Below are positions 50,308 to 53,875 of a stretch of DNA of 64,000 nucleotides, in pieces. The notes under the pieces are model-generated. The model was not told the DNA's origin, did not search any database, and saw only the letters and a list, made by a program, of their open reading frames with translations. Positions within the stretch are counted from its first letter, which is position 1; each line of letters starts with the position of its first letter. Made by a program: the position numbers and the translations under genes. This DNA is from Escherichia coli (GTDB taxonomy: Bacteria; Pseudomonadota; Gammaproteobacteria; Enterobacterales; Enterobacteriaceae), in assembly GCF_003334385.1 (NCBI RefSeq), contig NZ_QOWN01000019.1. The stretch is one strand, 5' to 3'.

Positions 50308-51516
50308 ATGACACCTTCAAATTATCAGCGTACCCGCTGGCTGACACTCATCGGTACTATCATTACCCAGTTTGCGCTGGGGTCGGTTTATACCTGGAGC
50401 CTGTTTAATGGCGCGCTTTCCGCCAAGCTGGATGCGCCGGTAAGCCAGGTCGCTTTCTCTTTCGGCTTGTTAAGTCTGGGGCTGGCAATTTCGTCTTCTG
50501 TTGCGGGCAAATTACAGGAACGTTTTGGCGTTAAACGCGTCACCATGGCTTCCGGCATTTTGCTGGGATTAGGCTTCTTCCTGACAGCGCATTCTGACAA
50601 CCTGATGATGCTGTGGTTAAGCGCCGGTGTGCTGGTGGGACTGGCAGATGGCGCGGGTTATCTGCTGACGCTCTCTAACTGTGTGAAGTGGTTCCCGGAG
50701 CGTAAAGGTCTGATCTCCGCGTTCGCTATCGGTTCTTATGGTCTGGGTAGCCTGGGTTTCAAATTTATCGACACGCAGCTGCTGGAAACGGTCGGTCTGG
50801 AAAAAACCTTTGTGATTTGGGGAGCGATTGCGCTGTTGATGATTGTTTTCGGCGCAACGTTAATGAAAGACGCACCAAAACAGGAAGTGAAAACCAGCAA
50901 TGGTGTGGTGGAGAAAGATTACACGCTGGCAGAGTCGATGCGTAAACCGCAGTACTGGATGTTAGCGGTAATGTTCCTGACCGCCTGCATGAGCGGCCTG
51001 TACGTGATTGGGGTAGCGAAAGATATCGCCCAAAGTCTGGCACACCTTGATGTGGTTTCCGCAGCCAATGCAGTCACTGTTATTTCCATCGCCAACCTTT
51101 CAGGTCGTCTGGTGCTGGGTATTCTGTCTGACAAAATCGCCCGTATCCGTGTTATTACCATTGGTCAGGTGATATCGCTGGTGGGTATGGCGGCCCTGCT
51201 GTTTGCACCATTGAATGCAGTGACGTTCTTTGCAGCGATTGCCTGCGTGGCATTTAACTTTGGCGGCACTATTACCGTCTTTCCGTCACTGGTCAGTGAG
51301 TTCTTTGGCCTCAATAACCTGGCGAAAAACTACGGTGTGATTTATCTCGGTTTCGGTATCGGTAGCATTTGTGGTTCGATTATCGCCTCACTGTTTGGCG
51401 GCTTCTATGTGACCTTCTACGTGATTTTCGCCCTGCTGATTCTGTCATTGGCGCTTTCTACGACGATTCGTCAGCCAGAGCAGAAAATGTTGCGTGAGGC
51501 GCATGGCTCCCTTTAA
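50308..51516 (+). CDS. yhjX: MFS transporter (oxalate/formate antiporter-like), 402 aa
   Basis: Native start MTPSNYQRTRWLTLIG; 12-TM MFS pattern. Confidence 0.9.
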   Translation: MTPSNYQRTRWLTLIGTIITQFALGSVYTWSLFNGALSAKLDAPVSQVAFSFGLLSLGLAISSSVAGKLQERFGVKRVTMASGILLGLGFFLTAHSDNLMMLWLSAGVLVGLADGAGYLLTLSNCVKWFPERKGLISAFAIGSYGLGSLGFKFIDTQLLETVGLEKTFVIWGAIALLMIVFGATLMKDAPKQEVKTSNGVVEKDYTLAESMRKPQYWMLAVMFLTACMSGLYVIGVAKDIAQSLAHLDVVSAANAVTVISIANLSGRLVLGILSDKIARIRVITIGQVISLVGMAALLFAPLNAVTFFAAIACVAFNFGGTITVFPSLVSEFFGLNNLAKNYGVIYLGFGIGSICGSIIASLFGGFYVTFYVIFALLILSLALSTTIRQPEQKMLREAHGSL

Positions 51517-51839
51517 TGCTCAGCCGCGAGCTACTGGGCTTCAGCTTCCGTGTGCATCAAACGCATCAACGAAATGTATAAACAATGACTCGTAAAATTT
51601 GGGCCAATTAACTGGCCCTTTTTACTGCTTTTTGTAACGCTAAAGTCTCTTTTCAAACTTGCATTTTTGTAAATTTGTGCTTCATGCACACTCTTTCCCC
51701 ACACTTTTTCCCTTTGCTGTGGTCTACTTATTCGCGCGTGTAGATTTTACTTATCTGACTACCTCCGCACTTTTTCCCTGCCGGGCCTGAAAAGCCACTA
51801 AGCAGGGTGTTATCACCTGTTTGTCCAGGGTTTGTTTGC

Positions 51840-53531
51840 ATGAGATACATCAAATCGATTACACAGCAGAAGCTGAGCTTTTTGCTTGCAATCTATATTG
51901 GCCTTTTTATGAATGGCGCGGTTTTTTACCGCCGCTTCGGCAGCTATGCGCACGATTTTACCGTCTGGAAAGGCATTTCTGCTGTTGTTGAACTGGCCGC
52001 CACCGTACTGGTGACCTTCTTTTTACTACGTCTTCTTTCGCTGTTTGGCCGCCGCAGCTGGCGTATTCTGGCATCGCTGGTGGTGCTCTTTTCCGCAGGT
52101 GCCAGCTATTACATGACCTTCCTTAATGTGGTCATTGGTTATGGCATCATCGCTTCCGTCATGACCACCGATATCGACCTGTCAAAAGAAGTTGTTGGTC
52201 TGAACTTTATTCTCTGGTTAATCGCCGTTAGTGCATTGCCTCTTATCCTTATCTGGAATAACCGCTGTCGCTACACCTTGCTCCGACAACTGCGAACCCC
52301 AGGGCAGCGTATTCGCAGCCTGGCGGTCGTCGTACTGGCGGGTATTATGGTTTGGGCACCGATTCGTTTGCTGGATATCCAGCAGAAGAAAGTGGAGAGG
52401 GCGACCGGCGTTGATTTGCCGAGTTATGGCGGTGTCGTAGCGAACTCTTATCTGCCATCAAACTGGCTTTCTGCGTTGGGGCTGTATGCCTGGGCGCGGG
52501 TCGATGAATCTTCCGATAATAATTCATTGCTTAATCCGGCGAAGAAATTCACTTATCAGGCACCGCAAAACGTTGATGACACTTATGTCGTGTTTATCAT
52601 CGGTGAAACCACGCGTTGGGACCATATGGGTATTTTCGGCTATGAGCGTAATACCACGCCGAAACTGGCCCAGGAGAAAAATCTGGCGGCGTTCCGTGGT
52701 TACTCCTGTGATACCGCAACCAAACTCTCACTGCGTTGCATGTTTGTACGTCAGGGGGGCGCGGAAGATAATCCGCAGCGCACATTAAAAGAACAGAACA
52801 TTTTCGCGGTTCTGAAGCAGTTAGGATTCAGTTCTGACCTCTACGCTATGCAGAGCGAAATGTGGTTCTACAGCAACACGATGGCGGACAACATTGCTTA
52901 TCGTGAGCAGATTGGTGCGGAGCCACGTAATCGTGGCAAGCCGGTAGATGATATGTTGCTGGTAGACGAAATGCAGCAATCGCTAGGGCGCAACCCGGAT
53001 GGTAAGCATCTGATCATTCTGCATACCAAAGGTTCGCATTTTAACTACACCCAGCGTTATCCGCGTAGCTTCGCGCAGTGGAAGCCGGAATGTATTGGTG
53101 TTGATAGCGGCTGTACCAAAGCGCAGATGATCAACTCCTATGACAACTCGGTGACCTATGTGGATCACTTTATCTCCAGCGTGATTGATCAGGTTCGCGA
53201 TAAGAAAGCGATTGTGTTCTACGCAGCTGACCACGGTGAGTCAATTAATGAACGCGAGCACCTGCACGGCACGCCGCGTGAACTGGCACCGCCGGAGCAG
53301 TTCCGCGTACCGATGATGGTCTGGATGTCAGATAAATATCTGGAAAATCCGGCCAATGCGCAGGCGTTTGCGCAGCTGAAAAAAGAAGCCGACATGAAAG
53401 TGCCACGCCGTCACGTAGAGCTGTACGATACCATCATGGGTTGTCTTGGCTATACTTCACCGGATGGTGGAATTAACGAAAACAACAACTGGTGTCACAT
53501 CCCGCAGGCAAAAGAGGCAGCGGCTAACTAA
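51840..53531 (+). CDS. eptB: Kdo2-lipid A phosphoethanolamine transferase (563 aa)
   Basis: Native start [14 protein letters not shown]; N-terminal TM domain plus sulfatase-like domain. Confidence 0.9.
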
Positions 53532-53789: not shown

Positions 53790-53875
53790 GTAGGCCTGAT
53801 AAGACGCGTCAGCGTCGCATCAGGCAAATGTGCCGGCCATTGTCGGATGCGGCGCGACCGCCTTATTCGACCTAC
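53790..53875. repeat. REP/BIME cluster upstream of dppA
   Basis: gtaggcctgataagacgcgtcagcgtcgcatcaggc ... gccggccattgtcggatgcggcgcgaccgccttattcgacctac. Confidence 0.75.

Follow-up and report, generated by a model that had tools for sequence, protein, structure and literature searches.

The 64,000-nt stretch of Escherichia coli DNA analysed here (the window) contains yhjX, which encodes an MFS transporter (50308–51516; 1209 bp, mapped from K-12 b3547 and seen in the list of open reading frames), and, downstream and co-directional with it, eptB (51840–53531), the gene of the 563-aa Kdo2-lipid A phosphoethanolamine transferase. Unless stated otherwise, all features described below lie on the plus strand of the window, as do these two genes. 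EptB transfers phosphoethanolamine to the outer Kdo of lipopolysaccharide, with an effect on resistance to polymyxin and other antimicrobial peptides. By the list of open reading frames, the yhjX frame ends at 51516, while the eptB ATG is located at 51840, which leaves a gap of 323 bp (51517–51839). A first-pass annotation, made from the sequence, had described about 320 bp of non-coding DNA between the two genes, and this description holds. The RefSeq record of K-12 contains no annotated feature between yhjX (b3547) and eptB (b3546, 563 aa). The gap is 100% identical to positions 3710476–3710798 of MG1655, and the whole stretch from yhjX through eptB is base-for-base identical as well. In a megablast search with positions 51400–51950 as query, 5423 of 5426 complete E. 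coli genomes proved to contain this region, with the flanks being annotated as yhjX and eptB. A gap of 323 bp is nothing unusual for E. coli, and its size alone carries no signal. Farther downstream, between proK and dppA, the window leaves the register of MG1655 from about 53789, so that its source differs from the MG1655 reference at that place. At this point a REP-type repeat region matches naRNA4 of Rfam (53793–53872); RtT-like repeats follow proK in other strains and genera.

In 1201 of the 5423 complete genomes (about 22%), every single match fell short of 80% coverage of the query, and the search yielded 1182 additional places of match. Three of these split genomes, O157:H7, M19 and EPEC E2348/69 (loci L002, L003 and L004), were inspected, and all three carry the lpf long polar fimbriae operon (lpfC–lpfE) between yhjX and eptB. 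The sequence of the window is matched again from 51601 in M19, from about 51657 in O157:H7 and from about 51656 in E2348/69. In the three genomes inspected, the lpf island does not disturb the eptB promoter region, which is complete from about −78 onwards. That the yhjX–eptB gap serves as an lpf insertion site is presumably already known.

The eptB start codon

The list of open reading frames opens eptB at a GTG, giving a 574-aa frame (51807–53531) in which the ATG at 51840 lies in frame. The first-pass annotation had taken this frame for an N-terminal over-extension and 51840 for the native start, and both statements are borne out. Orthologous loci, 80 in number and drawn from some 25 genera of enterobacteria, were examined for their start codon; the ATG is present at the equivalent position in every one, and RefSeq/PGAP annotates eptB with 1692 bp in four E. 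coli backgrounds (K-12, O157, M19 and E2348/69). The length of the open frame upstream of the ATG is not conserved and ranges from 0 to 73 codons; 43 of the 80 loci do not have any in-frame ATG, GTG or TTG upstream of the ATG before a stop is reached, and only 15 share the GTG at codon −11, the position of 51807. This GTG is directly abutted by its only purine-rich stretch (AGCAGG-GTG) and lacks a spaced Shine-Dalgarno sequence. The ATG is preceded at a distance of 9 nt by the Shine-Dalgarno-like CCAGGG (51825–51830), and CCAGG occurs at an equal offset in 56 of 79 orthologues. Judged from the comparison of the 80 loci, the 11-codon extension (51807–51839) is spurious.

The idea that eptB is truly translated from the GTG, or that a small protein-coding gene is located within the gap, is hardly credible. 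Candidate frames do exist in a mechanical sense, namely a 43-aa frame starting with TTG (51659–51790) and two frames on the minus strand (51531–51704 and 51728–51853). However, these candidates run across the promoter and across the body of the untranslated region, which is poorly conserved and rich in indels, RefSeq leaves the gap unannotated, and the start at the GTG is at odds with the counts of start codons and upstream frames given above as well as with its missing spaced Shine-Dalgarno sequence.

Terminator, promoter and upstream block

A terminator scan placed an intrinsic terminator 85 nt past the stop codon of yhjX (51601–51623; GGGCCA-ATTAAC-TGGCCC followed by TTTTT). It consists of a 6-bp stem with five G–C pairs and a T-run, and transcription of yhjX would end at this canonical hairpin. 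One match of such quality is also expected from shuffled sequences, and it is the placement after the yhjX stop that serves as the supporting argument. In strain M19, the same hairpin (51601–51623) is kept after lpfE. No 3′ end of yhjX is contained in the Term-seq tables. Downstream of the terminator, the proposed layout would continue with about 75 bp of poorly conserved spacer and then with a conserved upstream block (about 51655–51691). The identified upstream genes in the orthologous loci (yhjX, yhjY or an OsmC-like gene) are all co-directional with eptB. Four minus-strand frames (loci L013, L016, L033 and L045), which had been considered as a divergent upstream gene in some orthologues, look like antisense artefacts of yhjX.

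Transcription of eptB depends on RpoE (sigma-E) according to three reviews (PMC4651636, PMC6358824, PMC11331407), which cite Moon et al. 2013 and Klein et al.; this agrees with the envelope-stress sigma factor of which the first-pass annotation had spoken. Two published constructs, independent of each other, place the transcription start at G 51734 or G 51736. In the construct eptB133 of Kwiatkowska et al. (PMC6239178), the U-rich sequences AU1 (AUUUUACUUAUCU) and AU2 (ACUUUUU) are numbered as nt 11–23 and nt 36–42 of the eptB 5′ untranslated region, which sets the first transcribed nucleotide at 51734. In the cloning of Adams et al. (PMC7815308), the forward primer JW10412 begins with GCGTGTAGATTTTAC, that is at 51736, and the reverse primer JW10413 ends at 51839. 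The two constructs disagree by 2 nt, and the 5′ untranslated region accordingly measures 104–106 nt (51734–51839). The earlier description of a "long untranslated region" is thus right in part: a leader exists, and transcription does not start immediately next to the ATG, but the whole gap of about 320 bp cannot be called untranslated region. The leader makes up about one third of the gap, and the other two thirds consist of the yhjX terminator and of non-transcribed promoter and upstream DNA.

TCTAC (51723–51727), the putative −10 element within the block CTGTGGTCTACTTA (51717–51730), lies 6–8 nt upstream of the published start, which falls 7–9 nt after the last base of TCTAC. The putative −35 element of this sigma-E-type promoter is CACACTT (51700–51706; consensus GGAACTT). 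The bases assigned to both elements are inferred with the help of conservation, measured as identity to the window after the 240 nt that precede the ATG in 79 orthologues had been aligned with MAFFT. In this alignment, identity amounts to 0.90 for the −35 region (CACTTTT, 51702–51708), 0.89 for the −10 block and 0.87 for the block CGCGC at the transcription start; it is 0.46 for the spacer and 0.44 for the body of the untranslated region. ACTT and TCTAC are 16 nt apart in the window, as they are in 69 of 70 loci, and TCTAC is invariant in all four aligned E. coli alleles. Even the diverged allele of EPEC E2348/69 keeps exactly the −35 element, the −10 element and the Shine-Dalgarno/MgrR site.

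Sigma-E promoters have an optimal spacer of about 16 nt and a −10 element of the TCTGA, TCAAA or TCTAA type (Rhodius et al.). CACACTT matches four of the seven positions of the −35 consensus GGAACTT, which is confirmed in PMC3326320, including the ACTT core, and the consensus of the orthologues (gACACTT) matches five. In a sigma-E scan based on a crude consensus (GGAACTT, 15–17 nt, TCnnA) and not on a position weight matrix, the promoter scores 8/12, a value which each strand of the window reaches about 17 times per kb. As this motif is weak, the assignment of the promoter rests on the published start and on conservation and not on the motif. Sigma-E RNA polymerase would recognise CACACTT, a 16-nt spacer and TCTAC (51700–51727) and start transcription at 51734–51736. 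A second sigma-E-like string within the untranslated region, CGCACTT-15-TGAAA (51766/51788), scored higher (9/12) and was rejected, its −10 element being conserved to only 0.30. The 15-nt sequence CCRCACTTTTTCCCT is present as a direct repeat in three copies (51686–51700, 51699–51713 and 51765–51779), of which the second contains the sigma-E −35 element and the third contains AU2. The third copy and TGAAA at 51788 together make up a sigma-E-like string, which lacks conservation.

The conserved block upstream of the promoter (51655–51691, assigned to neither strand) is seen in the alignment of the 79 orthologues. In the lpf-carrying O157 genome, the sequence shared with the window starts at about 51655–51657, and in E2348/69 at about 51656. 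Its AT-rich centre ATTTTTGTAAAT (51663–51674, about −65 from the transcription start) reaches an identity of 0.85, compared with 0.29 for the upstream flank. The centre keeps a fixed distance of 51 nt from the −10 element (50–53 nt in all 74 distinct sequences), and the orthologous blocks (loci L007–L086) lie about 150–195 nt upstream of the eptB ATG. The block has palindromic symmetry, which is degenerate in E. coli and long and covarying in many further genera. In 37 of the 74 sequences, the centre is embedded in a palindrome of 30–40 bp with folding energies of −15 to −23.5 kcal/mol for the better-folding strand; such palindromes occur in about half of the sampled genera, and their arms vary from genus to genus and yet stay complementary. 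In the Citrobacter freundii group and Salmonella arizonae/diarizonae, the centre has the opposite orientation. The palindrome is not followed by a T-run and has no match in Rfam. Where the upstream gene is followed by a canonical terminator, as in E. coli, Enterobacter and their relatives, the arms are mostly missing, and loci with long arms are mostly devoid of a canonical terminator, in a crude comparison uncorrected for kinship. By eye, no convincing match of the centre to the consensus sequences of CRP, CpxR, PhoP, PhoB, TyrR, ArcA or IHF was found.

A T-tract/A-tract near −63 is a place at which the alpha C-terminal domain of RNA polymerase can dock at sigma-E promoters (PMC3326320). The mundane reading of the centre, though not of the arms, is that it may serve such docking. 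We consider it possible, although rather doubtful, that the block acts in cis on eptB in Enterobacteriaceae as a so far uncharacterised element, being either the operator of an unknown dimeric regulator or an insulating hairpin. In the latter case, the hairpin could shield the stress promoter against transcription running through from the upstream gene; in E. coli and Enterobacter, the canonical terminator could have taken over this task. The upstream palindrome and the map of constrained leader and promoter bases across genera are possibly new, and both could guide truncation and mutagenesis.

The conserved block also bears on the question of whether the entire 323-bp gap is transcribed, either by read-through from yhjX or from a second promoter farther upstream, which would give leaders of about 160–320 nt under some conditions. 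A genomic SELEX peak of the RpoS holoenzyme in the eptB/yhjX spacer, given in older K-12 coordinates (PMC5493296), and additional eptB RNA species of about 400 nt on northern blots (PMC7815308) would fit with such transcripts. Moreover, the conserved stretch 51664–51675 contains TGTAAAT, a weak string resembling an extended −10 element. However, a directional promoter would not tolerate an inversion of the centre such as Citrobacter and Salmonella arizonae show, upstream of about 51655 there is a collapse of conservation, and a consensus scan of 51300–52000 did not yield any promoter of the sigma-70/sigma-S type. As yhjX is followed by a canonical terminator and two laboratories use a start at 51734 or 51736, the longer leader appears improbable, and the sigma-E promoter with its leader of 104–106 nt is retained as the preferred reading.

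The leader and its small RNAs

The leader carries two U-rich stretches reported to be bound by Hfq, AU1 (ATTTTACTTATCT, 51744–51756) and AU2 (ACTTTTT, 51769–51775). Both are found in the sequence of the window, and their role in Hfq binding and repression is taken from PMC6239178, which cites Schu et al. 2015.

The first-pass annotation had further mentioned a small RNA that pairs near the start of eptB, had considered the leader probably regulatory and had proposed a prediction of pairing with known small RNAs as a check. For this prediction, the sequences of MgrR and ArcZ were taken from the K-12 record and duplexes were calculated in local windows of 24 nt; unrestricted RNAduplex runs with full-length MgrR or ArcZ against the leader had returned meaninglessly long, loop-ridden duplexes and were replaced. 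MgrR nt 54–75 are predicted to pair with 51828–51848 (−12 to +9 from the ATG) at −21.8 kcal/mol, covering the Shine-Dalgarno sequence and the AUG with the core GTTTGCATGAGATA (51834–51847). This site ranks fourth among 42,652 windows on both strands of the 64-kb window (top 0.009%). The predicted duplex agrees with the published seed U55–A68, which overlaps the AUG (PMC6239178), and pairing of MgrR over the eptB start codon is likewise described in PMC7815308. The pairing near the start codon is thus both predicted and published, and the first-pass reading of the leader as regulatory is supported. The Shine-Dalgarno/MgrR block (51825–51848) has an identity of 0.74, and 65 of 79 orthologues contain TTGCATGA. 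Many genera have GCTTGCATG at this site, which is a better match to MgrR still.

On northern blots, the level of eptB mRNA is raised in an mgrR deletion and lowered upon overexpression (PMC7815308), and RIL-seq work treats MgrR–eptB as a model pair of Class II (bioRxiv 10.1101/2025.06.26.660752). According to the reviews PMC4651636, PMC6358824 and PMC11331407, both MgrR and ArcZ repress eptB by base pairing. In the mechanism established in the literature, with which all computations of this study agree, MgrR, which is induced by PhoQ/PhoP, pairs with the Shine-Dalgarno/AUG region (51828–51848), blocks the initiation of translation and leads to decay of the mRNA. The stable 5′ fragment of eptB that has been detected, of about 118 nt, has its 3′ end at 51851. 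This position is that of a Term-seq 3′ end in the supplementary tables of PMC7815308 (K-12 3710464, minus strand), converted via the identity with K-12, and is located 3 nt downstream of the predicted MgrR duplex. ArcZ is reported to repress eptB directly as well. The best ArcZ duplex (ArcZ nt 68–82 with 51794–51808) has −16.4 kcal/mol, an energy which is matched by 12% of the windows, and its site shows an identity of 0.38 among the 79 orthologues. The predicted ArcZ site is not distinguishable from background, and for the repression by ArcZ we rely entirely on the literature. RyhB is reported to raise the translation of eptB (PMC4666370).

A different explanation of the leader would be a structured cis-acting switch, such as a riboswitch, an attenuator or a thermosensor, instead of a docking platform for small RNAs and Hfq. 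Published probing indeed revealed four stem-loops, with the Shine-Dalgarno sequence in SL3 and the AUG in SL4 (PMC6239178), and a modest effect of Rho (1.6–1.8-fold) has been measured (PMC7815308). That effect, however, maps to the coding sequence and not to the untranslated region (PMC7815308). The calculated fold of the leader is no more stable than that of shuffled sequences (z = −0.04), its centroid being essentially unpaired, and no Rfam family was matched inside the gap at E ≤ 1, nor was any matched in eight orthologous loci at E ≤ 0.1. In addition, the body of the untranslated region has an identity of only 0.44, contains indels and carries insertions of 125–150 nt in Raoultella and Klebsiella indica. 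A structured switch is therefore considered very unlikely, and the leader is read as a docking platform for small RNAs and Hfq.

Several orthologous leaders deviate from that of the window. In EPEC E2348/69 (L004:3700-4046), the body of the untranslated region is almost unrelated to 51731–51824 of the window, the AU1 region included, and the −35 element, the −10 element and the last 15 nt or so before the ATG are identical to those of K-12. Judged from its sequence, this leader, which adjoins the lpf island, looks recombinant. Raoultella planticola (L052) carries an insertion in the eptB 5′ untranslated region at about −172 to −129 from the ATG, with the promoter moved to −245. We take this insertion to be ERIC-like, as it differs by three to four mismatches from the ERIC2 and ERIC1R primer sequences. 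A different insertion of about 150 nt is found in Klebsiella indica (L077) at the same point of the leader as in Raoultella.

Comparison with known regulatory systems

Taken together, the gap is with high confidence the known regulatory region of eptB from E. coli K-12, comprising a terminator, a sigma-E promoter and a leader repressed by MgrR and ArcZ. The coordinates, the identity with K-12, the start codon, the complementarity to MgrR and its rarity, and the conservation of the −35 element, the −10 element, the transcription start and the Shine-Dalgarno/MgrR site were computed in this study. The literature supplies sigma-E dependence, the transcription start itself, binding of Hfq, the repressive action of MgrR and ArcZ, and the 3′ end. 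The mechanism is already known, and no new biology arises from the gap. Envelope stress (through sigma-E), Mg2+/Ca2+ (through PhoQP and MgrR) and oxygen (through ArcAB and ArcZ) converge on the control region of eptB, and each of these inputs has been published.

The closest relative of the locus is the eptB (yhjW) region of K-12 itself: it is the same locus, 100% identical to MG1655, with the same start, U-rich Hfq sites, MgrR site and Term-seq 3′ end. Moon and Gottesman (2009) and Moon et al. (2013) are said to have described the sigma-E promoter of eptB and its leader repressed by MgrR and ArcZ, and accounts of the regulatory region have reportedly come from the laboratories of Gottesman, Storz, Olejniczak and Raina.

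In its promoter, eptB resembles the sigma-E promoters of degP, rpoE P2, rybB and micA, sharing a −35 element that ends with ACTT, a spacer of 16 nt, a −10 element of the TCTnA type and a short discriminator. The A/T-tract block near −63 is likewise a feature of the sigma-E regulon. Unlike this regulon, the −35 element of eptB matches only four of seven consensus positions, and A/T-rich proximal and distal UP subsites are not evident at −40 to −57. The eptB promoter does not appear in the 60-promoter library of PMC3326320, as neither "eptB" nor "yhjW" occurs in the text of that paper.

In its leader, eptB resembles the Class II pairs ChiX–chiP and CyaR–ompX, in which the small RNA likewise pairs at the Shine-Dalgarno sequence or the AUG and the mRNA has U-rich instead of ARN Hfq sites. 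Class II targets bind the rim of Hfq via U-rich leader sequences (PMC7815308, PMC6239178, bioRxiv 10.1101/2025.06.26.660752). As in eptB, a stable 5′ fragment that ends just after the pairing site is also found for ChiX–chiP and CyaR–ompX. In contrast to these two pairs, eptB is paired with another small RNA, responds to the low-Mg2+ signal of PhoQ/PhoP and is transcribed from a sigma-E instead of a sigma-70 promoter.
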